A stretch of DNA of 64,000 nt from Pelagomonas calceolata (taxonomy: Eukaryota): positions 3,658,001 through 3,722,000 of the forward strand of contig CAKKNE010000002.1 of the NCBI GenBank assembly GCA_918797485.1, given 5' to 3'. Position numbers and translations under genes: made by a program. Below, one piece after another: positions 3,290-61,866 of this stretch (position 1 is the stretch's first letter; every line of letters starts with the position of its first letter). Below the pieces are notes generated by a model. It did no database searches. It saw only the letters and a program-made list of their open reading frames with translations, and had not been told where the DNA came from.

Positions 3290-4188
3290 CAACAACACCC
3301 CAAACAAGAAAGCCTCACTCGTTGTCCATCCACCAACGACTCATTATGTAACCTACCCGCGGCCAGTCAGGTAGGAATACTAGCAGCACCATTATCTTGA
3401 GATAGGCGCAGATAAGTCCCGCAAAATTCATGCAGGCACAACACGAGCGCTATGAACAGTTTCCAAGTCCCCTTGTCTTCAATGACAACCACATAATGGT
3501 CCAATTCATTCAATGCTTGCCCCTGCCGATTGTCTTAACTGCACCTGCGGCTTCATTTGCATGTCAAACGCAATTGCTGTAGCGCGAGTCCATAGGAGCG
3601 GGCTTGAGTGCTCTGGCCTCCGCAGTCAGAATGCCGCGCGGTTACTTTGAGCTGGGCCAGGGCATGCAGTCACATGGTGTGTTCTCCGAGCGTAAATGAC
3701 GAGCCCAGTAGGACAAACCCCAGTTGGAGTTCTTGGCAAGTGCGATTGACGGGAAGGTAACCCGCTCTAGATACCTCCACTCTTATATTCGCACACCCAA
3801 ATCGGGACCGCACACCGCGCAACAACAATGGCCAACCAGATGATAAAATAGCTGCCATCAAAGTTGCCAGTGACTTAAACTTAAACTTGAATAACTTATG
3901 CCAGTCACGGGCCCGGGCATAATTTTGAAATAAATTTGTGTGGATTAATACACTGGATTAATCATGATTGAAGTGGACCACCCCAATAAATGTCACGGTA
4001 ACACCGCGACCCCTCCAAGACCCACTGTGTTTTACCTTATTTTTTATTTTTTTTTCAATTTCGCATGCTAACTTGAAGCTGGCAGACTTCAAGTTACTGG
4101 CACAGTGACTACTAGTATTAGTATGGTGATGATGATGATGATGATACTGTTGTTAGGGGACTGTTAGGGGAGACTAGTGGAGGTACCG

Positions 4189-4639
4189 TCCCCTAGGCCG
4201 GAACTTGAAGTCGGTTAATTCGTTGGAGTAACATTCTTCCTTACCTTCTCTTAGCTCTAATTAGAATGAATTAGCCTGCGACGCTTAAGGCTCCTTGGAG
4301 ACTTCGAAATTTATAGGGGGGTCGGGCGCAATAGTCGACGTTGGCAGGTTTTGGCGCAATGAGCGTACAGCCACACGCCGGCCGAATGGCGGCAAACTTT
4401 TGCTGAGGCGCAGCTTCCGTATGCTAAAATAATGGGTTGCGTGCAAAGTTTGGTGCATGCGGGCAGCCTCGCGCTGAAAAATCAGCTGCGACGCGGTGAT
4501 GGTCCGAGATAAAACCCGCCCGAAAAACAATCTCTCCAATGGACGGGATAAACCGGCCTCGAATGATCCACTAATTATTTCCTATCGTTCCATATCTATA
4601 TAGGGCTGCTAGGGAATATCCTGCTTCCGGCCCTGCTTA
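4189..4639. repeat. Dispersed repeat family A, copy 1 (non-autonomous element)
   Basis: Aligns with 17061-17443 (high identity) and about 62360-62745 (diverged); short inverted repeats CCGGAAGTCGG / CCGACTTCCG near the ends. Confidence 0.9.
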
Positions 4640-4949
4640 GAGGTACCGTGCGTCGCAATGAGTTTGCACCGCAGGAATCTTGACAGAAAGCGTCAAGGTG
4701 GGCCCCACTAGAAGTCCTGGCAGCTAATTCCCGCTGGTTCAAAACTAATCTGGCCCGGGCAGTTTGGTAAATTTGGCGACACTCTCTGAGGATACACTCT
4801 CGGCGCTTTGCGCGCTAAATACGCGGCGGGAGCGCACATTAGGCGCCTGCGCGGCCCGCAGCAAGCTGTACCGGCATGGGGCAGCTGTACCAGCAAATGA
4901 CGGCCCGGGACTGCGTTTATCTTACCGCTGCGCATTCGCACGTGGCTCG

Positions 4950-7431
4950 CCGGTTGACACGTAGGACGTCATACGCCCATCTCCATGTGGAACGAGCCGT
5001 AGGCCCAAACACATTCTCGGCCGAGATTGTCATCAACTCACCCACGGTCAACATCGCGGCGTCACAAGGTCAGGCATGTTTGTGTAATTACGCAATGAAA
5101 CTTCGGTGGCTGTTCTTTTGGGGGCCACATACTTTTGCCTGCAACGCATGCAACCCGGCAAAACTAGCGTCAAGGAAATGAGTTTGCTGCAGAAGTAGAT
5201 TTCCCAGAAGATCCAGTGGGCTTTTCCCCGCAAATAGTACTTGACATGATGCGCCCGCACTTGTCACGCTGTCACGTGTGGCATCGGCAGAAACATAGAC
5301 GCGGTGCTTTTCACGGCTTACCAGTTCAGGGATACGCGACAATTGGGCGGTGAGAATTCCGAGATCATGGAAGTAGCAGCGTTCACACAGTGACAGATGT
5401 GGAGTTAATTCAGCACCAGCACTATTGAGCAAGGCAGCGCGGCTATTAACGCCCTTTTGTCGAGCGATGGCCATATGCACTACCACTTTGAGTAAACTGT
5501 TATTCAAGACCTATACAAGGTCAACTACCCACTCCAAATTAAATCTGGCATCTTCACTGGTTCCACATTCAATGTTTTGTTTGCTAATGTAAGTTGTGGG
5601 AAGCGCCTGCTGCAAATCAAGCAAAGGGCATTGGCAACTGCCATTGATCGCCTGGCGTAGTCCAGAATTGGCACGGTGACATAACCTTCTAAATATTCAC
5701 GAATATCATTAAGCCAGATTAATGTTTTCCTGCGGGAGGTAAAAATTGCGAGACGCCCAAAAGCGTTGTTAACATCGTCGACCACAGTGATCACTTCAGC
5801 TACAAAATGTAGCATGTCACTGCTGCTGTGCGGGATTTGGCTACGTACAAGCTCTGAAGGTACATAATGATTTGCAGATACATCAATAGCACAGCACGAG
5901 CAATCATCAAACCAGCCTATGCACAAGGGTTAGAGCGGAGTGATATCTTAGCAATATGGCGCAGTGACACAGGGACAAACACAGCATTGTCGCGGAATGG
6001 CTTGCACTGCCTCCAAGGAGACAACTGCTCACAACCTTTAGGTGTGGGTCTGAAGAAATGAAGGTATGACTACAGCGGGCTGGACTTTTGGAGATTACGG
6101 ACTTGATGTCTAAAAAGGCATCCTTTTGTTTCATAATGATCTCAATCAAGCTAAGTAAATGGATAGTGGTCACATCATGCCTGACAACATAGTGTACACC
6201 ACAGCCTGAAGTTTCCAAGCGCAAAGCAGCCTCCTCCACCGCATCAGCAACAAACAGAGACTCAATATGATGCATCATAAAGCTTTCCTGAGTACGCCAT
6301 GCAGGCATGAAAATATCAACTCCACAGAGAATCATGTCGACATGGCCATCATCAGTGGCTATGAGAAGGATCGTTAGTGCGTCTCTGTCACGTGCAACCA
6401 TTTGCAGCGGAGAACTGCCACGTAAGTTCAATGTAAATGATTGGATCAAAGGCGGTTCATGATCAAAGTTTCTTTGCTCTTCTCCTTCAATCCAAGAGAA
6501 ACTGCTCTTTGTAGCCTCACTACTATCCACACTTGAAATGTTTATGAGGTATGGGAAGGTAGCATAGAGCCATCGCAATGGAATTTCCCATTTTCCTTGA
6601 GTTTCATTGCTATTTGCGTAATTCCAGCCATCAACACACGCATCTCTAAGAGCCAAAACTTCACTCTGTGAAGCACAGCTTTGCCGTGGTGCCACGGGAA
6701 ATAGAGTGACGAGCTGATTAGGTGCAAGAAGAAAAACCCCAAAGCGGCTGTGCCTACGGCACATGCAGTTGACAGGCCAAAATCCTGTTACACTGGCTGT
6801 GCTGCTCTGATCCAAAGCAGAGCATTTGTACATGAGGAACACCAGTTATGAGAGATGTTGTGTCTCCCCCATAAATATCCCAAAACGTAATAACACCGGA
6901 GGCATCGATTGTGCAGATGTGGTTATCAAATTGTTGCGGAAAAGTTGCATCCAAGATTTGAGTGGAACTAGAGTTGCTGGGATCATTGAGGAATATCTCC
7001 AGTCTCCACTCATCTGAAGGGCACAGCGCGCCATTTTGGTCGCGTGGTGGAGGCAACACCTAGAAACTCGCATAAAAAGACGTTGTTGTGTGTTCTCTGA
7101 TCGCTCGCAACACCCAAAAAATGGCGCCCCGCAAGGATAACTGCATCAGCTTTATGATTAAAGCGTACAATGCAAAGCGAAGTGTGCTCCAACCTCTTGT
7201 GGGGGATGCACACCGGATAGAGCTTCTGAAATGCATGGTGACTGTAGCCCAATGCATTATTCCGCGTCACAATTAGCAGGTCTCCGCGGCAGGATGTGGC
7301 AACTAACGCGTCCTCCATACTACTGCAACAAAGACAGCCAGACAGTGTGGCCCACGCGAAAAGTTCTCCACTGTCTTTGTTGTTGCGTGTCGTGACGGTC
7401 ACGATTGTTGTCCAATTGAATTGCCTGCCAT
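4950..7431 (-). CDS. Nucleoporin Nup88/Nup82-like protein, multi-exon; ends approximate
   Basis: Consecutive minus-strand ORFs (7010-7402, 6754-7059, 5907-6842, 5525-5926, 5088-5507) give beta-propeller-like segments (VRFNHKADAVILAG, DNHICTIDASGVITFWDI, FGVFLLAP..LFPVAP, LLIATDDGHV) followed by a helical tail (SRAALL..LSLCERCYFHDL). This matches my recollection of Nup88 architecture. Confidence 0.55.
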
Positions 7432-7530
7432 CCCTGCACCGAGATCTTGGGCGGAGCGTCTTAAAAAAAACGAACCCAGAGTACGGTACGGGTTTTTACC
7501 CCCCCCTCGCCCACTAGCTAGCGGTTGCGA

Positions 7531-7645
7531 AAACCAGAGTGTCTACTAGGGCTTACCTGACGAGCACATTTGGCCGCAGAGTAAATTAAGGCTAAAGATA
7601 AATCAATTAGCGGCGAGCCCCGGGCCCTAGTAGACACTCTGGTTT
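7531..7645. mobile_element. Small MITE-like inverted-repeat element
   Basis: Perfect 22-bp inverted repeat AAACCAGAGTGTCTACTAGGGC / GCCCTAGTAGACACTCTGGTTT; TSD not resolved. Confidence 0.75.
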
Positions 7646-9358
7646 CGAGCTGACTGCCTCTCGGCCCCGTCGTAGTGGTCTTCAAAGTCCCATTCAGGCT
7701 GAGGCGTCATTGGTTGCAACGCGTCAATAATGATCTTCGCTGCCTCATGGCCGTGTCGCGGGCACGGCGACGCGCCAAGGCATCCGAGGCCCCTCGGGCA
7801 CGCGAGCCTTCTGAGACGAGGCGGAGGTGTTCTAACGGCGTATCAGACGCCGATGCACACCAGGCGGGGAGTGTAGACTGTGATCATTCTATCGTCCACG
7901 GGAAACATATATGCACGTCCTACCGATCGAATTTGTCAAGAACAGATCCTACCGATCGAATATGGTCCCCCGATGGAAAACTGACCGGTGGCAGTGTGGG
8001 CTTCTGGAGACTAGAGGCGAACCGGTGTGCCTTCTCTACCAGCACCCTGGAGATATATTTGCCGTTCGCGCCGCTCCGGCTTTGGGCCTCGCGGAGAGCG
8101 GCAGCTCTCGGGCCCTGGAAGACCGCTGAACCGCGGTCTTTCAGCGCGCGCGGCGCTTAAGGCACGAGATGATGAAATAGTTATGCCCATTTTTACACCA
8201 AAATGACCTGTTTTTACTCTAATCTGCAAGATTTCCGCTCTAAGGCGAGCGGAAATTTTCAGACATGATTCAAACACATTTTTTTGATAAAAATGGGTCA
8301 TAACCATGTGCCCCTTTTGGCCAACAAAACCCGAACCTTCCCCGAAAAATCGCCGAAGTCGACGTTCCTAGGGGGTAGATCAGGAAAATAAATTTCGACG
8401 TCAATCTCCCCAGACAGACGTGGACACCCCACGCTTAAATTCCGATCAACCTTTCAAATGACACTCGGGGCGATAAGGGCGATAAGGGTGATGTTTTGAG
8501 GTTTTATGAAAATGTAATTTTAGTCTAGGGGGGCGGAATCCTACTAGGAAGGGGTGATGGTGGTCTTAGGGGTGGTGTTTTTTAATCTTCAGGGTAATAA
8601 GGTGTGGCAATGACGGGTGTGGCAATGACGGGCCCTTGCTCCTCGAACTGGCTGTTTTCATTGTTAGACGCATCCGTCCGTACCGTATGAAGTCAAATAT
8701 TATCCAAATAGCGACCATGGCTGTACGGCGTTTTGCGCAAAAAGCACATCAACCGTGACGGCGCAAAAGCGCTTACCCCCCCTAAAAATCGAAGTCTCCA
8801 CGGAACATTAAGTGTCGCAGGGTAATTCAGCACGAATTTACCTTAGGGAGGATCGCTCGGAATCTTACTGTAAAAAAATTCCCGGTGTCCGGCCCTGCTT
8901 ACGTTTCTACTACTACTAGAACTTGAAGTATATTTTAAAGCTCTCAGGGTAAATAGCGTCTCCGAGTCATCCGCTATTCAAAGTTCGCCCCAGGCCGAGT
9001 AATTCACCTGCGGAGCCTGCAACGTCCAGGGTGATACGCTGGGCTGATCGCCAAGCTAACGCCCCGCGAGTAAGATTTCTACACGTACACCTAAAGCGGC
9101 TCGGGCTGTTAATTTTATGTGTCATGGAGAAGGCGCTGTATGTAGTGCTTCGGGCCGTGCACCTGCAAAAGTGTGCGTTATCTTGGGTACTGGCAAGATT
9201 AGGCGCCTAGATATAACCTCTCAGGGAGAGCGCCAACCAGACGTCTTGAGCTATACACTTTAACACCCACACCATTTCACACTGACTAACCAAATGACCG
9301 CGACTCTTGGTGAGGGACAGCGGAAATCTAAGGGGCTAGTCTCAAAGAGTTGGCAATC

Positions 9359-10363
9359 TCACTCGAGGTGGATTTGGTAGATGTCCGATGTGGCCTGCTT
9401 TCCATTCCAGCCACCAATGATGTATAGTCTTGTGCCCACAGCGCTCATGGTGTGGCCATACTTGTGGGCAATTTCCTGATAAGTTTGGGGAACAGTCCAT
9501 CGCTCAATGGAGGTTCCAGGGCTTGATTCAAGTAGGCGGAACGAACCTGAACCTTCTTGATTACAAGCTCTATTCTGAAGGCCCCCACTGCCCCAACCTC
9601 CAAATACAATTAAACCATTGCCAACTTTCGTTGTTGTGTGACCATGCCTCTTCGAAGGCGGTTCCCCCCCCTGAATAGTTGACTTCGTCCAGATCATAGT
9701 CTCGGTGTCGAGTTGGCGCAAATCATTGTGATACTGCGGCACAGGAAATATTGAACTAACGGTACAGCCACCAAAACACAAGATACGACCGTCAGTGAGC
9801 AGGCTGAGAGAGTGGCCATATCGCGGCGATGGTTGAATTCCTGCACACCTAGGCTGTACCCACGTAAAAGTATCAGAGTTAAAGACCCAAAGATCACCCA
9901 TGCACTGCATATGGCCGTCCCAACCACCATGGACCACAACTTTCCTGCCCACAAGCAAGGATGCGTGAAAGAATCTGGGTGATGGACATGCGCTTGTAAC
10001 TGACAGAGGGACCCAGCTCCATTCAACTAAGTCAAGGAAATACATATCTCTCAGCGTGCCGACTTCCCCACGACCTCCAAAGACGAACATCCGTGAGCCA
10101 ATCAACTCCGCGGAATGCCCGTATCGAGGTGTTGGCGCCTCCCCAGAGCAGGCTACCTTGTGCCACAGATGATGCTCTGTGTCAAGAGTAAAAGTATCGT
10201 TAAAGTACGCAAATCTTCCGCCGGAAGTGTAGCATGAACCACCAAATATGATGACCTGATCCTCCGCCATCGCGGCGGAATGTCCACCGCGCGCGGAGGG
10301 GCTGTCTCCATCGGTAACGATTCGGGCAAAGCTTAAAGCCGGCATGCCTCCGTTACCTTGCAT
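9359..10363 (-). CDS. Kelch-repeat beta-propeller protein
   Basis: 334-aa ORF with six Kelch repeats (PSARGGHSA..IIFGG, PTPRYGHSA..FVFGG, PSPRFFHAS..VHGG, PSPRYGHSL..CFGG, PSKRHGHTT..VFGG, KYGHTM..IIGG). Alternative start at 10345. Confidence 0.93.
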   Translation of the reverse strand: MQGNGGMPALSFARIVTDGDSPSARGGHSAAMAEDQVIIFGGSCYTSGGRFAYFNDTFTLDTEHHLWHKVACSGEAPTPRYGHSAELIGSRMFVFGGRGEVGTLRDMYFLDLVEWSWVPLSVTSACPSPRFFHASLLVGRKVVVHGGWDGHMQCMGDLWVFNSDTFTWVQPRCAGIQPSPRYGHSLSLLTDGRILCFGGCTVSSIFPVPQYHNDLRQLDTETMIWTKSTIQGGEPPSKRHGHTTTKVGNGLIVFGGWGSGGLQNRACNQEGSGSFRLLESSPGTSIERWTVPQTYQEIAHKYGHTMSAVGTRLYIIGGWNGKQATSDIYQIHLE

Positions 10364-11126
10364 TTCTCGCGGTATGTACAGTAAGTATCTCGTGAAACAG
10401 GGATACCACGGCCGTGACTATGAAACTAATACGCAGTAATACTCCTACTCGCCCCAGGCGCGCGCCTTGATAGTAGCCGCGGCCCGCGCGGCAAGAGTGA
10501 GGAAGGACACACTCCCCGCGGTCGGCGTCGCGGGCCCTAAGTCCCTTCCACTGGCCGCACGGCGCGTCGGCGCGTCGTTCCAACATCCGCTGGAATGCAC
10601 ACGTACGTCATACCGGTCGAATTTTGTCGATAGATGCCGAAGCGGCCCGCGATCGACATTCACCGAATATGCTCTCGCGACCGGCCGTGGGTTGACATGT
10701 GGCGACGGATAGCTGGTGGACTTCTGGAGGTGCACCGCTGTTTGCGTTGGTCAGGTGCTTCTCTACATTCGCATACGTATAACGATGAAATTAATTGATA
10801 TAGAATATATGATGATGTGCTTACGGATTTACCCAAACCTGAAACTCGCGTGGTACGCCGCGGCGGCCCTTTTCGAGAAGAAGAAGGAGGGAGGTCCGTG
10901 CGACCACCTTACTCTGTCCTAGCCCGACGGATGGGTCCCGGAGGAGCGGGAGCGACTAGGGGGTCGCGCGCCGTGTAAAACCCGAACCCGAACCCAGATG
11001 GCTCTCACGGAACCGACCCAATAATTGCCGGCATCCGGCAAACTCGAGTGCACAGTTGGGCCAGCGTAAAATGACCGCATCCTGTCGTACTTTGGCGCGT
11101 AGGCGTAAAAACTTTTAACTGCCAGA

Positions 11127-12119
11127 ATGAGGAGCTGCCAGCGAGTCTGTTTCTTTTGCTTCGAATGGAGTATGCTTGCCCTAGGACCATGCCTAATCAC
11201 CACGGTGCTGCTACTTGTGACCTGGGAAATATATTGGGTCCTGACCGCACTCGTCCCACGCATCAGCCCGCTAGGGACGACGAGGTGGTGGGCGCACGTC
11301 ACCTGGATTTATTTCCTATCATTTAATGGACTCTTCAACTATTTCTCCTGCGTGCTCACCGACCCTGGCACTCACTTATCCCCATTATACCGTGCGCTAG
11401 TCCTTGTGGCAGATGTGGACGGTGCGCTTGCCCCTTCGGACGTGGCTACAGGCCTTACGAGGGAGTCATTGTCACATACCAGAGCTTTGACCGCATCGTG
11501 GCTTGAGCGCGGTCCTTATGAGTGGGGTTATTGCAAGCAGTCGCGGGGGCCAAAAGCCCCGCGGTCTCATTATGACCACGTAACCCGCAAGCTTGTTCTC
11601 AATATGGACCACTATTGCCCTTGGATGTTCAATTGCGTCGGTTTTGCAAATTATAGGTATTTTGTGCTCTTTTTGTTTTATGTTACGGTAGCATGTGGTT
11701 ATGGTGCTGCGCTTACCTTCCCCGACTTCTCAACAGTCGCTGGGCTGCGGAGTTTTGCTGCGTTTCGTGGTCCACGCCCCACAAGTCGCGCCCATACTGC
11801 GGTCATGTTTACCTTTGTTCTTTCCATCTCGGTTGGAATCGCGGTCATGCTCCTTTTTAGCTGGCATCTCTATCTTGTTCTAACGGCTCAGACAACTATT
11901 GAGTTCTATGGAAATTGCACATTGCGCCGTCGCGCGCGTGTGCGAGGCCATGACTTTCGTAACCCTTATCATCGCAGCTACTCCACGAATTGGCAACATT
12001 TATTTGGCACCATGCGCCCTATAATCGCACTCCTGCCGAGCTCTCGTCCACCTCCAGGGAGGCCGTGGCCTTGCTTCCAGCTGCGGCCTTGCATGGTGAA
12101 ATCTGAAATCGAGGTCTGA
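11127..12119 (+). CDS. DHHC-type palmitoyl S-acyltransferase (DHYC variant)
   Basis: TM helices, TDPG, PKAPRSHY..LVLNMDHYCPWMFNCVGFANYRYFVLFLFY, QTTIEF and NPY motifs. Confidence 0.95.
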   Translation: MRSCQRVCFFCFEWSMLALGPCLITTVLLLVTWEIYWVLTALVPRISPLGTTRWWAHVTWIYFLSFNGLFNYFSCVLTDPGTHLSPLYRALVLVADVDGALAPSDVATGLTRESLSHTRALTASWLERGPYEWGYCKQSRGPKAPRSHYDHVTRKLVLNMDHYCPWMFNCVGFANYRYFVLFLFYVTVACGYGAALTFPDFSTVAGLRSFAAFRGPRPTSRAHTAVMFTFVLSISVGIAVMLLFSWHLYLVLTAQTTIEFYGNCTLRRRARVRGHDFRNPYHRSYSTNWQHLFGTMRPIIALLPSSRPPPGRPWPCFQLRPCMVKSEIEV

Positions 12120-13115
12120 ACCTCATGAGGTTATTGTTCAGATATCATCCACCTGATAGAAGAACTCGGGAGCATCATTATCCCGTGACCTTACTTTCTT
12201 AAAATGGCGGCGTGGCTGCCAATGATCAGGATGCCCCTTTCGGACCCTTCCTTGTTCACATACGGCGGATGCTCAAGCGGCAGGCACGGTCGTCTGACGC
12301 AGGGAACTTCCAGACGGCAAAACTTACCTTTAGGCGGTCCAGATGGCCCTGGCTGGGTACTATTAAAGGCGTCGCCGCGGACGCGTAGACGGTGAGAGCG
12401 AGGACTCCTCGAGGACACGTGGGTACTTTATGTAGAATCTCAGAAATAATCCCAGCGGCGCTGCTCGCGACTGCTTTCGGCGAATCCGGAAAATCGACCC
12501 ACCCTGGTGTCCTGGGGGAATTCGGGGCCGTAGCGGCGCGTCGCACACGTTTCTTGTACGAGAGGAACGGTGCTGCGATAGAACTGCCCTTGGTCGTACG
12601 TGGGTGTCGGAGCGATGCTGTGGGCCGACGGAGCCGCCGAATTTTACGGCCCACGAACGCCAAACCTCCCTGCGTGCATACGTCATGGCGCTCGGAACGA
12701 AGGCGTAAAACCAGATCGCTTAGTGAACGGAACGTTCACGTGGTGTGTATAGATGTGCTCGTGGCGCGGGACGACGTGGCATTGCGTATACAGCGATCCA
12801 GTCACGTCGCGAAGCTACTGGCGGAACTAGCAGAGCTGTGCGGGGCGCGCGGTGCGGCACTGCGCAAATCGCGCCGTCGGTCCCTAGTTTGCGCCCACAA
12901 GGGCGGAATCGAACAAAAAAAAAGACTCGGAGCTTTAGGCGTTTCTCTTTTTGCGCAAAGGCGTGGCCGTTTGATCAAAAGCGAGCCATTGGGAGCCTGA
13001 GCCATTGGGAGCCTGATACCCTGGGTGTTGCTAGTGGGAGCCTAGTACCCCCCAGGTAAAAGGCCGACAGGATATGTTACAGGATATACCCTACTTACTA
13101 TCGTGCATAAGCCCC

Positions 13116-13339
13116 TGCTGAGACGCTATCGACACTCAAGTTCGCCATGCGCGCCAAGCGCGTGACCAATGTACCGCGCCTCAACGAGGACCTTGACCAG
13201 GCATCACTACTGCGCAAGTATGAGCGAGAGCTTAGACGCCTCAGTGCCAAGCTCGAAGAGCGAAATCGCAATGTAGTCGATCAACGGTGTCTACTCGAGC
13301 TCGAAGAGCGCCGCCGTCGCGCCGAGAAGAACAAGCATG
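13116..13339 (+). pseudogene. Inverted 224-bp duplicate of an internal part of the neighbouring kinesin gene
   Basis: Reverse complement of 14495-14718 with about 6 substitutions by eye; encodes MRAKRVTNVPRLNEDLDQASLLRKYERELRR. Confidence 0.95.
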
Positions 13340-13607
13340 GAGGACGCAGGCGCCCACATCTCGTCGCTTGGCGATCTTCGCCCTCCGGCCGTCCCAGGCC
13401 TCACAAGGGCGACAGGAAGAAGTGGAATCAAAAGAGAAAAATAACACCGAGAGACGGTTTTAAGACGTATACATGAGGAACCGCGAGTATTTATTTGACC
13501 AATACCATATTGGACTCGGGAGAGAAATATATGCCGTCCGTAAATTCATTCATTTTTACATCATTACCTCCTAGGATTATTTCGTGATTGTAGGATTCCG
13601 CCTGATC

Positions 13608-15896
13608 TCAAAGATTCCTTTCTGAGGTGGCAAGGCGCCTCCCAAGCTCGCCTTGGCCGGCCTGTTTCAGCGCTTCGACAGACGCACGGATGAGGCGCCG
13701 CAGTGCGCCAAGATCTTTGAGTGCAAAGGCACGTGCAGCACCGGGCGCTACGTTTTGACGGTCGAGATTTGAGGCGACGCTGTCGACCAGGACCGCAATT
13801 TTCTTTTCGAAGATGGTCTGGACAGCATGGCGCTCCTTGTCGCGAAGCTCAAGTAGGGTCAAGAGCTCGGCGACGCGTTTGTCTGCGCTTGTACCACCGG
13901 CCGCAGCACCACCGACCGCAGCGGCCGCGGCAGGAGCACAATCAAGGGGTCGCATTAGCTTTGCATTATCTGCGCGGCGCACAGTGACGTCATGTCGAGC
14001 TGCGTCTGCCTCGTGAAGTGCCGCCCGCGCTCCACCCTCGAGCTCAAGGCGCTGAATTTGGATGCACTGGGTGGTCTTCTCATCAAGCTTGTTTTCGAGC
14101 GCAGCCTGGTTCCGATCATACGCTTCAAGCTCATCCTGGAGTGCCATGATCTGCTCATCGCGCTCATTGAGCCGCTGAGTTAGCGCGATCATGATATCGC
14201 GCTGCTTGAGCAGTAACTGCTTGTAGCGCTCGACCTGAGCCTTCTCGTGCTCAATACGCTCACGCTCACGCTCGAGATCGGCCAGCCGCGCGTCGTACTC
14301 TGCCGCTGTGTGACGTGCAGGCGACACCTTAGCGTCGTCGATGCCGCCTACCCTGCCACCGACCATCCCGTTCCCCCCGACATCAGTCGAGATCATCTGC
14401 GACGTAAGTTTTAAAATACGCTCCTCGAGACGCGTCTTATCCTCCTTTTCGCGCATGAACTCACGCGAGCGTACTTCGAGCGCGCGAATCGCCGCACGCT
14501 TGTCCTCCTCGGCGCGACGGCGGCGCTCTTCGAGCTCGAGTAGACACCGTTGATCGACTACATTGCGATTTCGCTCTTCGAGCTCGGCGCGGAGGCGTCT
14601 AAGCTCTCGCTCATACTTGCGCAGTAGTGATGCCTGGTCAAGGTCCTCGTTGAGGCGCGGTACATTGGTCACGCGCTTGGCGCGCATGGCGAACTTGAGT
14701 GTCGATAGCGTCTCAGCAATCGACTCAGCTGCTGGCGAGATGGTCGCCAACATGGTTGTGCGACAATTGCCGCCAAGTGAGTCCTCCAGGAGCCGTGTGA
14801 GCTTAGAGTCGCGGTAGGGGACGTGCTTGCGTGTAGTACCGCTTGTCTGCCGCGTAGCAAGGGCGGCTATTACATTTCCGAGGGCTGACAATGACGCATT
14901 GATCTTCTTCGATTCTTCGAGTCGCTGGCCAGTAGCGCCTGAGACACCGACACGCTCGGAACCAGCGAGGTCGACAAGATTAAGCTTCCCCACGCGAAAT
15001 GTTTGCTTGACTCGGTTTTCCAGGCGCGCGAGTGCTTCGGCCCGCTTGAGGCCGGCCGATCGCATTTCACGGGCAAAATCGTCTGGCGCCAACTCACGTC
15101 CGTCCTCACCCACATAGACAGTCTCCGAATGCTCGACGATAACGACAAAAACTGCGTGTGACCGCGACGAGAAGTCATTCATCCTCGTGGCGCCAGTTGC
15201 GCGAGATCGCGAAGCGCGGTCCATTAGCGCGTAGACCTCCGAGGGCTGGCGAACAACCCACTCAGAGAGACCGTCGACGTACACGCCGCGCTTGGGATCC
15301 TCACGGATTGCGAGCGCTTCAAGCGGCGATGCTACCGCACTGGTTCCCTCAGGTGCTATGCCGTTGCGTGGGGGCGCCAAAAGATCCGAAACGATCTCCT
15401 GGTAGATCTGGATGCAAGACGCACGCGCGAGGAAGCGCACGTTTTTCTGTGCGTGTCCTGCAACGTGACGGAAGATCTGTTCGACCGACCGTGGGATGAT
15501 GCCACGTGCAACCGGATCACGGGCCTCAGAGCCGTCCATTGTGTAAGTTTTTCCAGTGCCTGTCTGACCATACGCAAACATCGTGGCATTATAGCCCTGA
15601 AGGCAGCTCTCTACAACCGGCTGTGCGGTTGTTTCGTAGACTTCCGCTTGTGTGCTGCCAGCATCGTACGCATCGTCAAACGCGAACGTGTGCACCGCCA
15701 CGCTGCGCTGGCGATTGATTGTCGGCACATCGTTGTCCACGTCGCTAATTGTCACCGTCTGCAGCCGCTTATCCACGCGCGCTACACTCCCCGACGACTC
15801 GTGCGCGAGTAGCGGCCGTACACGGACGACTACCTTGACCGCATCGTCATGCCCCCTGGGGGAGCGCGCCGCCGACGATCGGTCTAACTCATCCAT
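13608..15896 (-). CDS. N-terminal motor kinesin with coiled-coil tail
   Basis: 762 aa: VKVVVRVRP, FAYGQTGTGKTYTM (P-loop), NDFSSRSHAVF, LVDLAGSER, HVPYRDSKLTRLL, ETLSTLKFA, then coiled coils. Confidence 0.97.
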   Translation of the reverse strand: MDELDRSSAARSPRGHDDAVKVVVRVRPLLAHESSGSVARVDKRLQTVTISDVDNDVPTINRQRSVAVHTFAFDDAYDAGSTQAEVYETTAQPVVESCLQGYNATMFAYGQTGTGKTYTMDGSEARDPVARGIIPRSVEQIFRHVAGHAQKNVRFLARASCIQIYQEIVSDLLAPPRNGIAPEGTSAVASPLEALAIREDPKRGVYVDGLSEWVVRQPSEVYALMDRASRSRATGATRMNDFSSRSHAVFVVIVEHSETVYVGEDGRELAPDDFAREMRSAGLKRAEALARLENRVKQTFRVGKLNLVDLAGSERVGVSGATGQRLEESKKINASLSALGNVIAALATRQTSGTTRKHVPYRDSKLTRLLEDSLGGNCRTTMLATISPAAESIAETLSTLKFAMRAKRVTNVPRLNEDLDQASLLRKYERELRRLRAELEERNRNVVDQRCLLELEERRRRAEEDKRAAIRALEVRSREFMREKEDKTRLEERILKLTSQMISTDVGGNGMVGGRVGGIDDAKVSPARHTAAEYDARLADLERERERIEHEKAQVERYKQLLLKQRDIMIALTQRLNERDEQIMALQDELEAYDRNQAALENKLDEKTTQCIQIQRLELEGGARAALHEADAARHDVTVRRADNAKLMRPLDCAPAAAAAVGGAAAGGTSADKRVAELLTLLELRDKERHAVQTIFEKKIAVLVDSVASNLDRQNVAPGAARAFALKDLGALRRLIRASVEALKQAGQGELGRRLATSERNL

Positions 15897-17060
15897 TATC
15901 GACTGAATTGGCCCGCCGGCGCCCGCGGCGCCCGGGCGACGACGACGGGTTTTTAGCCCCCACCCCGCACGAAACGCGCGCGCGCGGCCGCGCGGCGAAG
16001 AGTATGGCGGCCTTGTCCGCCCCCAGGGAGCGTCAGCGGAGGCTTAACGCGCCGTATGCAGGGAGCCCCTCGCCACTCCAGCGCTTGGTAGTGTGCCTAC
16101 AGGAGGCGAGTGCACCTGCGGCTCCGTTGCCCTTCATTGCGCCGATTCCCCGCCAACCGACGATTTGGTCACGGAGGCGCCTGTCCACCATGACCCGAGG
16201 GCAAGCCCACGATGTAACGGACTCACTAGACATCGGTCGACGGGGGCTTGAGCCCGAGTGGTCGCGCCGAGGAAGAGCGACGACTCTATATCAACCACGC
16301 CACACGGCCGTGAACATCGAACCATAGTGTACTACGGCCGAGGAACACCAGGCACCGCCTCGATATTGAAATCAGTGACATGGCGTCGAACGCCGGGTCC
16401 TTGGCAGTCCCTTTTTCATTATAGGTAGAATTGATTTGAGCACCTCGCCCGTGCTGCCCGGTGGTCGCGTGCCGAAGTTTGTGTTTCAAATTTGGCGGTT
16501 CTGGTGCTGTGGCCCAGGAGCGCCAATTTAGGCAGCGTTTTTTGCGCGCGGCGCGTGCCGTAGTGTGTATAGAGGCTGCTGGCAGTGTGCGGTGTGTGTG
16601 GAAATTTAGTAACCGTGTATCTGGAAATTTAGTTAGGCCCGCGAAGTTACCGCGTCAGGCGATCTATTCGGCAGCCCATGAGGTACCCCGGCCGCGCGTG
16701 CGCATCCGCCCCACGCCGCGAGTACCCGAAGCCCTAGGTTCCCGGCAAGAAGCGGTTCTGAAATACCTGCTACGTAACCGCGGACTCCCCATCCTGGTCT
16801 GGAAGCGCAAAAAGTGACCGCAGCCTCTTGAAGAGCCCAACTGGGAATTTGAACCCTAATATCAGGGGACCGGACCGGGCCCCCGTAGTCTCCCTTCCTG
16901 ATCACTATGTTTAACTGTTCATTCAGACTAGTGCCTTTTTTCAAATTCTGTTGGCGAGAAGGGGCAAGGGGATATATCCAAACAAACATTTTAACAGCCT
17001 AAGAACGAACGAACGAACAAACAAAAAGAGGCTTAGGAGCTTACCGTGCCAGTGACTACT

Positions 17061-17443
17061 CCCCCTAGCCGGAAGTCGGTTAATTCGTTGGAGTAACATT
17101 CTTCCTTACCTTCTCTTAGCTCTAATTAGAATGAATTAGCCTGCGACGCTTAAGGCTCCTTGGAGACTTCGAAATTTATAGGGGGGTCGAGCGCAATAGT
17201 CGACGTTGGCAGCCTGAGGTTTTGGCGCAATTGAGCGTACAGCCACGCGGCGCCGACCGAATGGCGGCAAATTTTTGCTGAGGCGCAGGTTCCGTATGAA
17301 ACCCGCCCGAAACCCAATCGCTCCAACGGACGGGATAAATCGGCCTCTAATTCCCCACTAATTATTTCCTATCGTTCCATTATTAACTTCCATATCTATA
17401 TAGGGCTGCTAGGGAATATCCGACTTCCGAGGCTGGCTGCTTA
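17061..17443. repeat. Dispersed repeat family A, copy 2
   Basis: GTCGGTTAATTCGTTGGAGTAACATTC..TTCCATATCTATATAGGGCTGCTAGGGAATATCC shared with copy 1; internal deletion. Confidence 0.9.
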
Positions 17444-17776
17444 TTAAGTAAGTGACTACTAGTAGAATACCTCTGAGTCCGAGTCCGAGTTTCTTCTTCG
17501 GCGCCCATAATAAATACCCCGGGGGGTAGAGGCCGGACTTCGGACAGACTCGGGCCGGCGTGGACTTGATGCGTATCTGCCCGCGTGGGGCCGGCACTAG
17601 AGGCGGGCTGGCAATTAGTTTGCCTCAGTGAAAGTGATAGGAGATCGCTTTGCCTCTGCGAATGCGTGCACCGTGCGTAGGTGCTCGCATGAAAACTAGT
17701 GCGACTTGATTGACGGAACTAAAGTTCTTCTTCTTGCCCGCGCCCGTCGACAGCACCGTTACCCACGAGCCGGAGC

Positions 17777-28308: not shown

Positions 28309-29145
28309 ATAGCCCGAACGTCGCAACTTACTACGAAAGGGCCTTAGGGGGTGCCTCACATTCTGGCGGAGTGTGGGGCCCTGAAAATGCGAGGGGCCGG
28401 AAGGGCCCCCACGCGAACGTCGCGCCAGTCTAGGTTGGCACTTACCATATCCCGTCGGCGGGATATGTTATACGGCACTTACCCGAGGGGTTATTAACCC
28501 CAATCGTGGCCCGGGGTCAGTAACCCGGGTAATTACCCGTTAGTACGGGTTATTAACCCCGCCGGGATCTTATAGTACTAGACTTTCTTATAGAGGGGGA
28601 GGGGGAGGGGGCCTCACGGGCCACTGGCGCGGGCCTGGGCCGCGCCGGGCCACATGACTTGGTACTTGCCTTGGCGCACCTGTACGTACCCAAAAGCTCA
28701 ACGGGCTGCTTGCGCCCATCCGCTCGCCCGGAGGGGTCTTTCGCTAATCTCACTAAACGGGTTTAGTCGAAAACCTGTCGGGTTATTGAGCGGGTTATTG
28801 TCCCGGATCCCCTCCGAGGGGTAATTATAGGTTAATAACGGGTAATTAACAGGTAAGTGCCAACCTAGGCGCCAGTGGCGTTTCGCGTCGTGTTTGCGCA
28901 TCCTCAGGCTACCGACGCCACCGTGACGGGTACCAAGGGGGACTTCGAGGGGGAAATCACCAGCATAGAAGCGAGTTTTGATTTTCACCCCTGAAAACCC
29001 GCGAGTTGAGCTAAATACCCTCACGTTAGGTCATTTTGGGCACCTCACCCCATCTCGAGGGGGGCCCCTCCGTGGCAAGCTAGTGTCGCCGTGTGCTTAG
29101 GATGCCCCTGGGACCAAACGGGCCAAGTTGCGACGTTCGGGCTAT
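28309..29145. mobile_element. Non-autonomous TIR element hosting a nested hAT-like MITE
   Basis: Perfect 21-bp inverted repeat ATAGCCCGAACGTCGCAACTT (28309-28329) / AAGTTGCGACGTTCGGGCTAT (29125-29145). TSD ambiguous (TA, AT or TTAA/TCAA). Confidence 0.85.
28430..28868. mobile_element. hAT-like MITE
   Basis: 17-bp TIR CTAGGTTGGCACTTACC / GGTAAGTGCCAACCTAG, perfect 8-bp TSD GCGCCAGT (28422-28429, 28869-28876), subterminal TAACCCG/TTACCCG/GGGTTATT repeats. Confidence 0.92.
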
Positions 29146-40649: not shown

Positions 40650-40890
40650 ATGCGATGCATAGGGAAATAGAATGTGTAGCTCCGGACTTTCCCGGCAGCG
40701 TAGTGTAGTCGTCTAACGAAATAGTTTCTCCCATGTTTGATGGGGTTTGTGACGGGGAATTGCGTCCGTCAATAAAAGTGACTCAGGATGATAATAGTTA
40801 GGAGTGAGAGGCGACTTCCCCCTACTAAGGGGATATCGGAGTACCCTAGGATGGGAAGTAGCCTAGGCGAGTAATACAAGTACGGGTTGT
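40650..40890 (-). repeat. Dispersed repeat family B, inverted copy of 57086-57341
   Basis: About 240-bp near-identical reverse complement. Confidence 0.9.
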
Positions 40891-41534: not shown

Positions 41535-44500
41535 CTATAGCCAAGGTTCCCAGTTTGGTGCGTTGATAGCTATACAGTCTGGCGATTGAGCTAGATGAAT
41601 TAGTTTTGTTAGGCCACTTTCAATCTGAAGGCCACTGGGTGAAAACTTCAAGGGTGGTGCTATCGTCAACACACGGTCGATGATCGCCCTCTTTTCTTCG
41701 AAAATTTTCGTTAAGCACCCCTGTGACCTCGCATGATTATTACCGTCGATTTCGGCGCCCACAAAGAGGCAAATATATGGTTCTAGGAGCCCGCCTGGTT
41801 CTAAAGTATATCGCATGGCAAGCAGGATGGTTCCGATTGTTGTCTTGAAAATGCTGTGCAAAAGGAAAGGTTGTAGTAAACGCTCCATGTTCCGTGTCAG
41901 ACGGAATGGTACAGATCCGGAGGACGGTAGAGATCCGGAGGACGCAGACCGACTAAACGAAAAGGCTGGTCTGAAATCATTGAAATGGACACGCCCAGTG
42001 TGATGGCAGAGCATTGTTTCCTGTGTTCCGCCAGGACCAATAGCCAGAACAAATCCAAGGATGGAGGGAATCGCAAGTTGAGTAGCAAATGTTCGACGAT
42101 AAGTCCATAAACCCTCGAAGCCATCATGAGTAGCACGAACATACGTAGCAAGTACATGCATTGGCACTTTGCCGGCGCAAACTTTGTTATAGATTGCCCG
42201 ACGTGCATCCTGAAGAGACGCACAAGTACGCTTTCTCAAAGACAATGTTGTAGAGAGTAGAGCCTGTGTGTGAATTTGAGCAAAGGAAGCTAGACCGTTT
42301 TTTTCTTGACCGAGGGCAGAGCTCCTTGACTCGGCAATTTCACAGAGACTTGTCCAAGACCACCTATCTTCCATCATTGTAAAGTTTGGTCCAAATCTAA
42401 TATGCGCAAAAGGTAACACTCGCAAGCGACGTTGTTGTGCAGCTTTGCACCGAACGAGTGCAAAGTCGATGACACCAAGATATTGGCTTACTCTTTCATC
42501 TGCCTGTGCATTTCTACAGCGAGTAAAAGAAGATGCGAACACCTGAACCTGTCCTTCGTCGGAAGAAAATGCAAAGTGCTGTCCTGACTTTCCACTCTTT
42601 ACTCTGAGACAGGCAGGGGGATCGATCTGTATCAACGGTAGATGCAACTCCGGCCGAAACAGGCCAAAGGTACTAGTGTATTGACCAGGAACCTCAAGAA
42701 AGCAACCTTTAGTACCTGGCCGAGTTTCAATGGTGCGTTTTCGCTCACTCTGTAGACGAGACAGTGTAGAATATGGATATTTGCAGCTCCTGGTTGACAC
42801 AACCTCAATAGTTCGATTTGCTAGGATTCGAGTCAAAGTGTCGAGATTACTTGTGAGGGATAAGTGATATGATGGAGATCGCCCATTTCTGACTGGGGTA
42901 GGAGTTTCCACCCATATGCTGTTCAAATCTAGCGACTGTAGACGTCCGCAACCAACATACCTCAAACTGACCTTGTGCAGAAGCACGTACAATATATTAG
43001 ATTCTCGATCCCGAGCACTGTCACACAGTTCTCCAGAAACACAACGCAACAGATGAAGCAGCTCTTCGCTCGGACCGGGTCTTGCGGTCAAAACCATCTC
43101 ATCACCCAGTGTATCCATTTTTGTTGCAAGCACTGAATCATTTGAGTAGATGCTGGAGATAAGTTTATTTCCTTGTGTATGCGTTACAGCGCAGGACTGG
43201 TCCTGTGTTGTCTCAGATTTTAAGGCATAGAATATTGCCTGAGGTGTCGAACTGGCAAGTGAGCATACGGCAGTTATTACTTCAGGTAGAGCAAGCATTG
43301 ATAGGAGCTGTGGAATCCAAGGAATCATTGCACCTGTGGGTACCACCTTCGAATGAATATGAAACAGGCGACGGAGTTCGTCAGATTGTTTGCTATGCTG
43401 CAACAAACACAGAATACGGGCCAGTCCGCACACTGATGCATCTTGATGGCCACATTCAATTGCCGCGAGATAGCAGAGGAAAGAGTTTTTGACAAGCCGA
43501 TTTAACAACACTGAAGATAAAGCTGCTTCGGTCGAGCAATTTACATCACACAACACAGCCCAGGAGTACCAGGCACGCCCGTAGTTGCTGCAGCCTCGAG
43601 TAGCAACAGAAAATGCGCAATGCGCATCCCTAAACCTTCCTAACATCCCCAGGAACACTCCCTTAAGCCTGAACAGTTCAGCGCGCTGCTCTGTGCTAAA
43701 TACCTCAATCACCATATTGTCGATGAAATTAAGGCCAGCTTGAGTGCTTCGAAACATACGATCATCAGCATTGCAAAACGACAAAAGTCGTTCCCGAACA
43801 TTGTGGAATGCATTATCGATATTCATCTGAATATCATTCAAATCCTTATTGCCATACTGTGCCTCCTCCCGTAGCCCCTGTTTTCTCGCGACGCGAGCCA
43901 GTGTAACCAATGTCCATGGTGCATCATGAAGTCGGAGAATCTTGTTGGCTGCACCCCACGCGAAAGCCTTCTCTATCGACAAGAAAATATGCTCACGCCA
44001 TCGCATTATGTCATCCCAGCCGGACATGCTGTCCCAGGTGTTTGGCAGTCGGTTTCGCCATGTATGTGTCATGGTACTGAGATCAGGATATGTAAAGGCA
44101 CGAGAGTGTTGCGATGCCTCGTGGAGTAGTTGGCTGCTTTCGTGGACTTCAATAAGCTCATGAAATAGATGTAGTAGTTGATCATGTACAGCTACTCCCA
44201 AATGCGGTCTGGGTAAGCTGCTCCATGATTCCAATGCGAGTTGGATACATTCCCCACAGAGGTCTTCGACGTCAGAATAAAGCCCTTCAACCACTGCCAA
44301 TCGTGCTTGTAACAGCTTGACCTGAGGTGTTAGTTGCTCTGGTTGTTTGCTCCCATTCAGATGCTTCCGAACATAGTCCCATTTGTGTGATTTCCAGGAT
44401 GCTTCAAGACACAAAGTTGGTCTCAGCAACCCTGAAGGGAGAGAAGCAGGGGTATATTTAAACAAATCTGACAAGAGCAGCCACTGAGACATATCGCGAG

Positions 44501-47500
44501 CACATGCTAGCCACTCTGCGCACCACACGTCAGCCTCAAAGATGCAGGATGAAAGCGGTTTCACACCGGTGGCATCATGGTGGGTCTGGCGAAGAGCTGA
44601 CACCATATTACTAAGAAAGATATGTTGAGCTTGAGGAATAAAGCCGTATCGCCGAAGCGAAAATGCGATGGAGGACATGGGGTTGGTGCAACCGTCGGCT
44701 AAAGCACCCACCTTCATATCAGTTTCCTGCAAACTACTAAACAATGATGCGCAGTGCAATTCCGGTAACCTAGAAACATGCTGCGGTGTCAAATTTTGCC
44801 GCATCACAAAAACCTCTTCAATGATGTGTAAGACTGCGTGATAGGAATTATGTCTAGCAGCAGCAGACGACAGCATCCTCACAAGGACCTGGGCCTTCTG
44901 TTTGCCAGCCAAGCATCCTGGCAGGGGGAACTTGCATCCCTGAATCAAAATCCGCGGCACACTTGTTGTGGTAAATACTGTGTCTGTAAAACTCAGGGGA
45001 AACCCGATAGAGGAGGGCACTGCAACCCGTGTCTTCGAGAAAGAGGCGCTTGGCCGAAATCGTGCGTCGTTGCTGGTTGCATATACTTGACTAAGTGGGA
45101 ACATAGCAGGGACTTGTAGCTTCGGATGAGAATGCGATGACGCGAAGTGCGTAAAAATTGAATTTGTCAGCGCAATTTGCCACTGTCGCTGATGACATTG
45201 TTTAACACTGCAGCAAACGTGAGGTAACATGTCAATCCAAAACCTCTCTGCCAGTCCAACATGCGCGTGGACCACCTCCTTAAGAGGTTCGATAAAATTC
45301 TTAAGTGTTCCACATTGTTGTAAAAAGCAACATCGCGCAGTAGTGTATTGCCTTTGAAGGTTTATATCGAGACAAATAAGTGTCTCTAATGACCTGGGTA
45401 AGAATAATTCGCTAAACAACGAAGGTGCCTGCGCAAATTGAGTCGTGAGCCTGACCGGCCCATCCGCATCTATGCCATCTAGGATTACCTCAATGAGAAT
45501 CACGAGCCAAAAACGATTAGAAAGGGGAGACCAATCAAGATCGAACATTTTAATGACATGATGACTGGCACACTTTATGACATCATGCATGAGGAGACCA
45601 CGGAAGGTCGCACGGACTCCTGGATGTACCGCCAATAGACCCACGGTGCTTGACCCTTTACCTGGCCCCCGCCCCACAGAAAGCCTTTTAGTCTGCGTGC
45701 CCGACAACCCGATTCCTTGGCAAAAAGTGCCCTTAGAAATTTGGTTAAGTGTGCATAGAAAACGAGCGTGCAAAGGTTGCAATGCCGCATCTGTCAGATT
45801 GTCAATGTCCAACATGTGTTCGATAAACGCAGTTTTTTCTTTCCTGGAGAGGGGTGATTTGACCTTGACGAGCCAACCAGACACTAATTTGGAAACCTTG
45901 CGCACGAGTAGTGTTGAGTTGCTTCGTTCCAGACAAACAAACACAAGAACGATAAGCTCACGACGCATTCCTAGTAAAAGACTATCGGTCACTGCTTGCG
46001 CAAGAAGCGAAAAAATGATAAGAATTGCATCTATCACACCCAGTGAAAGACTAAAATCACCGGTGATTTCTGGTTCTCCTGCGCAGTGCCCATATGTTGA
46101 TTTAATGGTTTTTGTCAGGACGGATAATGTCGGCGTTGCGTGGCAGGAATTTGATTGCGAGGGGGGGTTCTTGCGGATTGAATTTAAGTGCTGGAAAATA
46201 AGAATCTGACCCACTCTCAGGAGTTGATGCCCATGATTTAGTATATACGCAGGTGCAGACTTACATGCAGCATCAATAATCTTAATGATAGGTAGTACGT
46301 AGGCTACCAATTTGAAGCTTGAAGCGCTCGCCCAGTCCCCGTGTCTATTTGACGTACCATGATTTTCCATTGCAGTAATTAGTCGAGATTCAATTACATA
46401 TTTGACACGCTGATAAAACATCATTGTAGAATTACAGGACTTTATAGGGGGGTACAACACTACTATTCTGGACAAAAGTCCTTGCAGCTTCAACTGAACT
46501 TCTGTGCTCCGCACGTAAAAAAAACAAGGGCAAATCAACAGCTGGGCTTTTAAAACATTGTCAATGAAAAAAGTGTTAGGCCGGGTGTTCCTGCCCAAGG
46601 TGATGTGCATGATCTCTAGGCAAGTTAATAGGAGCGCGGATGAATATGGCGGATCTGTTGCCGTTGTTACGTCCAAACGTGCATTGGAAGTAGCAATGAT
46701 TTTCTCGAAATAAGAGAATCGAATATGGGCATTTGGCCAAGCACGTAACGTGGTATCGAACAGCAGCAGGCAGCGTGGTGCTAGTTGCTGCACAGCAGGT
46801 TCTTTATTGTCGGAGGCAAAAAGAGCCAACCGGACAAGGAAATTAGCTACCATTTCGATCATCGTCATAGTCAAATGAAAGTCGTCGTCAATTTGCGATT
46901 GTTTTGATGAGCCCACAATAGGCTTTAGATTTTTCTCCGCAGTAGTTGCACGTGCCTCCTTGTGACCAATCTTAGACTCCCAATTCATAATCAAATCAGC
47001 CAGGGCAACCGCCAATTGTCGGTTTTCTACTGGACAATTAGGTGGTAGACCCAAGCGATTCAATGAATTTACCATTTGAGGCATGAACTGTGACCGATAA
47101 GGGAAAAATAGTCCAGGGTGGCGAACAACGAGTTGCCACATGTGAACAAGCTGAGCTAGTGCATGTCCTTCCTCATACATGATTTTCTTGGTCCACTTAA
47201 CTGCCTTAACAAAATCGTTGATGGGAAGTCGTTTTGGCAGAGCTGGTATCAATATATCAAGAGCAACCTTGACTAATTCACGTGCCTCAGGTTGAAATGT
47301 TCGCAGCAAAGCTACGTAGACCTACAGGAGCACTGGTAGGCAGATGAAGTAAATGTAGAGTGATAACCTGGAGTATGATTTTTGGGGGCGTCTCATATGT
47401 GGCGACAAATCGACACACATTAACATAAGCCCATTGCTTTGACAGCGAATCATCAGATTTGAGATGATTCCATGCAAACTTGATCAGATCTTTCCTGTGT

Positions 47501-57085: not shown

Positions 57086-57341
57086 ACAACCCGTACTTGT
57101 ATTACCCGCCTAGGCTACTTCCCATCCTAGGGTACTCCGATATCCCCTTAGTAGGGGGGAGTCGCCTCTCACTCCTAACTAGTTTCATCCTGGGTCACTT
57201 TTATTGACGGACGCAATTCCCCGTCACAAACCCCATCAAACATTGGGAGAAACTATTTCGTTAGACGACTACACTACGCTGCCGGGGAAGTCCGGAGCTA
57301 CACACTCTATTTCCCCGGGCCTCAGGCTATCATGCATCGCA
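57086..57341 (+). repeat. Dispersed repeat family B, followed by decayed ORF pieces (57369-57831); possible 5' end of a retroelement
   Basis: Matches the reverse complement of 40650-40890 apart from substitutions and stacked short insertions at 57314-57333. Confidence 0.85.
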
Positions 57342-60905: not shown

Positions 60906-61866
60906 ATGGATGGCAGCCGCAAGCGAGCGTGGACGCCCGCCGAGGACGAAAAGCTACGGACCGCGGTCGCGGTGGGCCCCGTGAAGTGGGCGAGCGTCGC
61001 GCAGGCCGTCGGCACGCGCAACGCGAAGCAGTGTCGGGAGCGGTGGCACTATAACCTCAACCCCGAAATAAAGAAGGGCCGCTGGACCGCGGAGGAGGAC
61101 GCGCTCATCGCTGCGCTGCCACACGGCGACTGGGCGAGGGTCGCCAAGGCGCTCCCGGGCCGCACCGACATGGCGATCAAGAACCGCTACCACACGCTCT
61201 CAAAGCGCAAGCGCTCGGCCGCGCGCCCCGGGGCCGGCGGGAGCGCGCCGGCGGCCGCACGCGCGGCCAAGCGGGGCCGCGGCGCCCCGCGCGTATTGCC
61301 GCCGCCGCCGCCGCGGGCGGCGCCGCCGCGCACATCGCCGCCGCGCGTCGCGCGCGGCGGCCCCGCGCGATCGACGTCGAGCCCCGAGCTCTCGGCGCTC
61401 TGCGACGTCGCCGGCGGTGCAGAATTCAACCAGTGGTCCGCGCCGACCGAGGATGGGAGATTTACACGTCACCTTTCCACACAATCGGCCTATTCGAACT
61501 CATTTGATTTCCGCACAGGTCGCCGGTGTTGCACTGGGCGACGACGCCGCACGGCCGGAGTCCTGCTCGCCCGAGCTTCTCCGCGTCTGGGCCCGCGCGG
61601 CCGACCTCGGCACGCCGGAGCCCCCGGAGCACCGGCGCGCCGCGTCGGCCGCGTCGGCGCTCTCGGCGCTGAGCCGCGCGACGACTGCGCGGCTTACGCC
61701 AGTTGCGCCGTGCGGCGGGCCTTTGAGCTCGCCCGAGCTCGGCGCCGCCTTCGGTGTGCTCCCACCCCCACCTAGTCCTCCGAGACTCCCACCTAGCGCG
61801 GCGACGGCTGGCGCAGACGTCGCGCACGGCTATTTGCAACGCGAGGGCGCCGGCGGCCCGGGGTAG
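60906..61866 (+). CDS. R2R3-MYB transcription factor with an introner intron
   Basis: WTPAEDEKL..WASVA..RNAKQCRERWHYNLNPEIKKGRWTAEED..WARVAKALPGRTDMAIKNRY. Removing 61407-61518 joins in frame to the 61417-61866 ORF. Confidence 0.92.
61415..61518 (+). mobile_element. Introner element (TIR DNA transposon forming a spliceosomal intron)
   Basis: Perfect 8-bp TSD GTCGCCGG (61407-61414, 61519-61526); right TIR TTGATTTCCGCACAG and degenerate left TIR CGGTGCAGAATTCAA. The GT donor lies in the TSD and the AG acceptor at the TIR end. Confidence 0.92.

Follow-up and report, generated by a model that had tools for sequence, protein, structure and literature searches.

A six-base insertion rule in Pelagomonas calceolata and the process that may have produced it

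Introduction

How do two copies of one repeat come to differ by six bases at two separate sites, with each copy carrying the extra bases at only one of them? The question is raised by a 64,000-nucleotide stretch of the ocean alga Pelagomonas calceolata (contig CAKKNE010000002.1, positions 3,658,001 to 3,722,000; the whole stretch is called the window here), which holds three copies of a repeat named family A. In copy 1, AACTTGAA occupies 4202-4209, where copy 2 has AA (17073-17074); at a second site, AGCCTGAG occupies 17211-17218 in copy 2, where copy 1 has AG (4346-4347). Both 8-mers have the form XY-C-rc(XY)-G-XY, in which rc is the reverse complement, so that each is a 6-bp gain on a dinucleotide XY. 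Insertions of this kind, called scars below, are derived, bound to the rule, recent and pervasive; they have no target preference, and a single outcome dominates. They are probably the footprints left at excision by a cut-and-paste DNA transposon, itself unseen, that would duplicate 2 bp of target and have C…G ends, and the flanks of which would form hairpins that keep one base of the element. The family A features on which the comparison rests are as follows.

4189-4639, plus strand: family A copy 1, non-autonomous, about 450 bp, between 9-bp direct repeats at 4180-4188 and 4640-4648; it is a carrier of scars, not their maker
4202-4209, unstranded: scar on AA (AACTTGAA, site 1), private to the locus (locus comparison)
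4346-4347, unstranded: untouched AG, the ancestral state of site 2 (locus comparison)
4359-4360, unstranded: untouched AT; the same-locus alleles L045, L046 and L047 have ATCATGAT here (allele alignment)
17060-17450, plus strand: family A copy 2, which has lost about 79 bp internally, between 9-bp direct repeats at 17051-17059 and 17451-17459
17073-17074, unstranded: untouched AA, the ancestral state of site 1 (locus comparison)
17211-17218, unstranded: scar on AG (AGCCTGAG, site 2), private to the locus (locus comparison)
62346-62756, plus strand: family A copy 3, of a diverged subfamily and uninformative at both sites, with a 9-bp direct repeat
8718-8901, minus strand: family A relative, partial or rearranged (sequence comparison)

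Ancestral and derived states

An earlier note on this DNA had described the pattern as CCGG-AACTTGAA-GTCGG in copy 1 against CCGG-AA-GTCGG in copy 2, and GTTGGC-AGCCTGAG-GTTTTGG in copy 2 against GTTGGC-AG-GTTTTGG in copy 1, and all four strings were verified in place. Copies 1 and 2 are 93% identical over 227 aligned columns. That they carry different 6-bp insertions under the same rule, as the note had it, also holds, but they are not necessarily direct duplicates of each other, as the family extends to at least 30 loci. These were obtained by grouping 60 copies by hand (57 loci from a metagenome scan and the three copies of the window) into 30 insertion loci.

At site 2, 10 of these loci have the short state and 1 the filled state. 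At site 1, a single locus carries the insertion and 2 loci match the short allele exactly; with 3 further loci that have same-length variants with substitutions, the short length is found in 5 in total. The other family A loci are diverged or truncated at these sites. The filled locus of site 2 enters both tallies owing to one sequence, L002, which matches copy 2 in its left flank only and is possibly chimeric or recombinant; it was pooled with copy 2 in the locus tally and omitted from the strict allelic count. Contigs without the six bases at 17211 were seen in four of four sequencing runs, and among the matches listed in that comparison both 6-bp insertions obey the rule. In addition, 69 rule 8-mers lie in or beside family A copies, and 22 are informative: 13 are found only collapsed at other loci and 5 in both states, which gives 18 with a collapsed allele elsewhere. 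In family C, a high-copy repeat (about 863-1219), different copies carry different scars on a common short backbone.

The alignment of family A copies for copy-specific insertions and deletions (indels), which the earlier note had proposed, thus finds the scars to be private and the short state common to many loci. Because short alleles recur across loci, in same-locus contigs and in family C, the 8-mers are not the consensus from which the short alleles were deleted. The short alleles at sites 1 and 2 are confirmed as ancestral, and the insertions as derived. The note's contrast of filled and empty sites stands in the sense of scarred and untouched, and a stereotyped insertion is proven; it does not extend to a transposon origin, as no element-filled site was seen.

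A further family A position, the AT at window 4359-4360, is scarred in three different loci (L001, L014 and L045-L047) and polymorphic in one, which therefore points to a recurrent hit or to gene conversion between copies.

The rule across the window and related loci

The pattern XY to XY-C-rc(XY)-G-XY extends well beyond family A. The window contains 159 rule 8-mers, with all 16 XY dinucleotides represented, against 26.1±4.9 (maximum 39) in 100 dinucleotide shuffles made in 1-kb blocks.

1-64000, unstranded: field of 159 rule 8-mers, about 130 over chance (shuffle comparison)

Counts are also above chance for the centre classes CC, GG and GC (69, 84 and 66; about 25 expected), and the other twelve are near chance. 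Words with CC, GG and GC centres are generated by nested or tandem scars, which may account for some or all of this excess.

For a larger sample, the window was joined with 25 of the loci into a set of 257 kb, in which L001 and L012 overlap in part; all loci had been selected for carrying family A, and scar densities apply to such loci. Here, 387 rule 8-mers have an XY containing A or T, against 45±7 expected. This enrichment belongs to one length of insertion: the ratio is 8.7 for +6, and for the alternatives +8, +7, +5, +4 and +3 it is 2.0 (6 vs 3), 1.3, 0.8, 0.9 and 1.2, the last being the same as its own control. Direct joins of the form XY-CG-XY and XY-C/G-XY show no enrichment over controls in this set.

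No sequence is preferred as a target. The XY spectrum fits the local background (chi-square p=0.29), TA is found as XY in 24 of 386 cases against 30.7 expected, and the flanks of the rule 8-mers have no consensus in the 257 kb. Position, in contrast to sequence, is far from uniform, as the density of scar pairs falls from 0.02 per base at distances of up to 20 bases to 0.002 at 0.5-1 kb. Nested scars occur in all registers (9, 6, 1, 9, 5 and 3) at about the local density, and thus fit independent, repeated events. Of the 101 A/T-containing 8-mers in the window, only 4 lie in the 28.6 kb of ten open reading frames (ORFs) with Pfam support, and 97 in the remaining 35.4 kb. This depletion is present even though a gain of 6 bp preserves the reading frame, and could reflect targeting or selection.

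Differences between alleles of the same locus

Same-locus alleles were aligned at 95% identity or more over at least 600 bases, with clean flanks. Among their indels, 42 are of 1 bp, 16 of 6 bp and 12 of 2 bp, so that 6 bp is second only to 1 bp. Since 13 of the 16 six-base indels follow the rule, the process is recent; the other three are simple or microsatellite duplications. By chance, the rule is met by 0.11% of random 6-bp insertions and by 3.6% of 6-bp tandem duplications. The polymorphism runs in both directions: four scars of the window are missing from some alleles, and three scars of alleles are missing from the window.

1005-1088, unstranded: scar cluster in family C, with 8-mers that the paralogues lack; its scar at 1068 is also missing in allele L047
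279-286, unstranded: scar missing in allele L047, nested in an older scar from 276 (allele alignment)
3992-3999, unstranded: scar missing in alleles L046 and L047 (allele alignment)
10857-10864, unstranded: scar missing in alleles L045 and L046 (allele alignment)

Other allelic differences were noted. Several of the twelve 2-bp indels are dinucleotide duplications, which might be duplication-only scars and are indistinguishable from slippage. Two 8-bp indels (near window 4065 in alleles L046 and L047, and in L025 vs L005) consist of a 5-bp duplication and 3 bases, and are possibly a second, rarer class of scar.

A mechanism that would yield the rule

Because the rule is exact, the geometry of cutting and repair can be read from sequence alone. 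A duplicated XY around an inverted XY matches two opened flank hairpins joined through annealed 2-nt tips. The central C and G are not derived from the flanks, because only 40 of the 386 8-mers and 3 of the 13 allelic events are flanked by C and G. Their simplest source would be the first base of an element, left behind by a nick one base inside its end.

In the proposed pathway, a transposon would insert at any dinucleotide of accessible intergenic DNA to give XY[C…G]XY. At excision, the transposase would nick the non-transferred strand one base inside either end, and the 3′-OH of the flank would attack the opposite strand at the tip of the element, producing a flank hairpin with one element-derived C in its loop. 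A host nuclease of the Artemis/Pso2 type would then open the hairpins two bases beyond the tip, leaving XY-C-rc(XY) as the left and rc(XY)-C-XY as the right 3′ tail. The tail ends would anneal because their last two bases are complementary for every XY, and fill-in would give exactly XY-C-rc(XY)-G-XY. Repeated visits would accumulate scars in hot patches a few hundred bases wide.

Parts of this pathway have precedents. Flank hairpins, their opening by the host, palindromic (P) nucleotides and joining by microhomology are documented for hAT, MULE, Transib and RAG in the available text of PMC5499845 and PMC5873905, and that of PMC13189230 describes zebrafish CMC-EnSpm elements that have CAC ends and duplicate 2 bp of target.

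Comparison with known systems

The scars do not have the signature of the best-known families. hAT elements duplicate 8 bp of target, whereas only 2 bp are duplicated here; the inverted dinucleotide of P nucleotides is present in every rule event. The Tc1-like family is TA-specific, and the TA target expected of Tc1/mariner elements is not what is seen here. To our knowledge, RAG-type hairpins lack an extra base in the loop.

In the parts of PMC5873905 available, the likeness to Ac/Ds, a hAT system, is clear, as its footprints are short insertions of P nucleotides, palindromic about one central base, made through flank hairpins, host opening and microhomology joining. However, the central base in hAT footprints is the complement of the flank base adjacent to the element, while here C and G are constant whatever the flank; moreover, hAT footprints vary in those descriptions, whereas here one outcome dominates. 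Hairpins on the flanking DNA, as proposed for the scars, are likewise described for RAG, Transib and MULE (PMC5499845, in part). An active RAG-like element, AanRAGL, is known from a related alga, the pelagophyte Aureococcus, with 5-bp duplications (PMC9435367, as far as available); the 2 bp found here differ from the 5 bp of Transib and RAG-like elements.

CMC/EnSpm elements with 2-bp duplications, such as zebrafish EnSpm-N49 (PMC13189230, available text), agree with what the scars suggest in both duplication and C…G ends, and the duplication without a fixed target that would follow from the background-like XY spectrum also fits them. Nevertheless, no such element, with CAC/CCC-type terminal inverted repeats (TIRs) flanked by 2 bp, was recognized in the window and the 57 loci. 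The CACTA element dTac1 differs too, since its two footprints given in the consulted text of PMC3859356 do not retain both terminal bases, unlike the scars. For dense fields of footprints without a visible element, a precedent is offered by the '10-bp repeats' of Ustilago maydis, which have been proposed as transposon footprints (cited in PMC4081816, available in part): they too are numerous, tiny, stereotyped words in a compact genome with few visible elements. They differ in length and host, and are likened here by description alone.

Neither the rule nor a report of it in pelagophytes was found in the full-text literature searched, including the accessible parts of 10.1101/2022.06.06.494994 and PMC11282704, subscription literature being outside this scope. 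The scars are classed as a variant of hairpin-type excision footprints, outside any named transposon family.

Candidate makers

MULE elements duplicate about 9 bp of target. Family A has 9-bp direct repeats, judged by eye, at 6 loci (the three window copies, L035, L044 and L048), 8 bp at L049 and no evident direct repeat at several other loci; its inverted ends are short and imperfect. With a duplication of about 9 bp and inverted ends, it appears to be a MULE-like miniature inverted-repeat transposable element (MITE), and its 9-bp flanking repeats rule it out as the maker. Its pattern had 0 matches in viral contigs.

Local elements with C…G ends (28430-28868, and in L019, L048 and L011) were excluded because their 8-bp duplications are too long for a +6 scar. 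An element of the AanRAGL type was ruled out by its 5-bp duplication (PMC9435367, available text), and a hAT-like reading, in which CXYG would be a 4-bp target, holds for the AG site and fails at the AA site and most events.

Some short elements stand apart as observations. At window 28430-28868, L019:7620-8011 and L048:1650-2205, MITE-like elements end in CTAGG…CCTAG and have target duplications of 8 bp. Others, which have CTG…CAG ends and are similar to pelagophyte introners, lie at 61495-61525, 63403-63433 and L011:2967-3114, the last with an 8-bp duplication.

Weighing the explanations

Several results count against the proposed transposon. In spite of hundreds of scars, the window and the 57 loci yielded no recognizable element with C…G ends and a 2-bp duplication. 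The search combined TIR scans with boundary checks: the scans for TIRs with target duplications returned 2,581 pairs, mostly due to chance, without a convincing 2-bp C…G family; none of three large co-linear allelic indels is a 2-bp-flanked element, and no donor ends are among the contig loose ends listed. No transposase family was matched in Pfam by 121 ORFs (15 of the window and 106 of the 233 of the loci), and among the listed entries of the P. calceolata gene table the sole transposase named is a Tc1-like DDE_3 gene. The two dTac1 footprints, TGCATGG and TGGCCGG from TGG, do not keep both C and G (PMC3859356, available text), and a nick one base inside the end followed by a flank hairpin was not found described in the literature searched. 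Within family A, 4 GC-rich informative 8-mers are found only filled elsewhere, and three loci carry a scar at one and the same site; this points to a degree of shared ancestry, homoplasy or conversion. It is tentatively possible that the scars record an undescribed chemistry of breakage and repair, through either a transposase that nicks one base inside its own end before hairpin formation or a host break with a 2-nt stagger, an added C and a hairpin without any transposon, and hence a live, sequence-blind and self-recording process that maps open chromatin.

The second of these routes needs a nuclease of the Spo11/Top6A type, which cuts with a 2-nt stagger. Such an enzyme would break open chromatin, with fill-in, an untemplated C, hairpin closure, opening and annealing to follow. 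This explanation is unlikely, although it accords with the donor and transposase not found in the window and locus scans, with the absence of target preference and with the clustering of scars in intergenic patches; in addition, SPO11 is present in P. calceolata according to the available parts of PMC9481584. It requires, however, an invariant untemplated C at both ends as well as hairpin closure, for which no precedent was found, while simple fill-in products (+2, +3 and +4) are not enriched, and the P. calceolata authors argue, in the text available, that breaks are suppressed in low-GC regions, of which the window is one.

Alternatively, a transposon might leave such scars without a transposase-made hairpin. 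Tc1/mariner elements are cut inside the element end; a cut of this habit would leave a 1-nt 3′ C on each flank, from which a host polymerase could fold back to copy two bases before joining. The Tc1-like gene, as the sole transposase among the table entries listed, speaks for this version. It is nonetheless quite improbable, since TA is not preferred (24 observed vs 30.7 expected), the direct joins it would predict are not above controls, and fold-back synthesis would be expected to vary with the sequence and to produce a range of lengths. Finally, the 8-mers could be ancestral motifs that serve in binding or undergo slippage, in which case the short alleles would be deletions. The 2-bp terminal repeat in each 8-mer could indeed slip, and the four GC-rich 8-mers are common to several family A loci. 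Yet the scars are private and the short state is widespread, all 16 XY variants are present with nesting in all registers, and a random 6-bp deletion would reduce a rule 8-mer to its XY in only about 0.7% of cases; already contradicted by the contigs at 17211 and the family A locus tally, this possibility can be given hardly any weight.

Host and setting of the window

The window is eukaryotic and intron-poor, with ORFs for Not1, Tra1, kinesin, TRAPP subunits and Kelch, DHHC, WD40 and Myb proteins. The closest named matches of Not1 are from pelagophytes (85% and 78%), and DNA of the window is found in many marine metagenomes and in small, culture-sized runs. Much of it has a GC (guanine plus cytosine) content of 43-52%, which resembles the centromere-spanning regions of P. 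calceolata, given as 52% GC in the consulted text of PMC9481584.

Other features of the window were observed. Its GC content shifts sharply between blocks of about 43-50% and of 60-71%, for instance at about 58000. A 224-bp inverted copy of part of the kinesin ORF, 97% identical, lies just downstream of the gene (13116-13339 vs 14495-14718). Tra1 (41535-53301) is divided into two long ORFs that overlap slightly near 47290, probably due to an intron or a frameshift. Family B (40662-40890 and 57086-57315) has adjacent AG and GG scars at the end of its second copy and not of its first. A low-complexity, palindrome-rich GGTAC/CCTAC tract (1213-1291) lies at one end of family C and recurs at other copies.

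Significance

As the rule is unlike the scars of hAT, RAG/Transib and mariner elements, it leads to a specific and testable prediction of where an uncharacterized enzyme would cut. In wild populations of this abundant ocean alga the process has acted recently, and rule insertions are the commonest class of multi-base indel between the alleles compared here. The scars rewrite intergenic DNA and supply population markers that are nearly free of homoplasy, and they record activity in a lineage whose best-studied genome reportedly lacks an accumulation of transposons in low-GC regions. If the chemistry is indeed an undescribed one, a globally abundant picoalga would carry a live, sequence-blind mutational process that maps its open chromatin.

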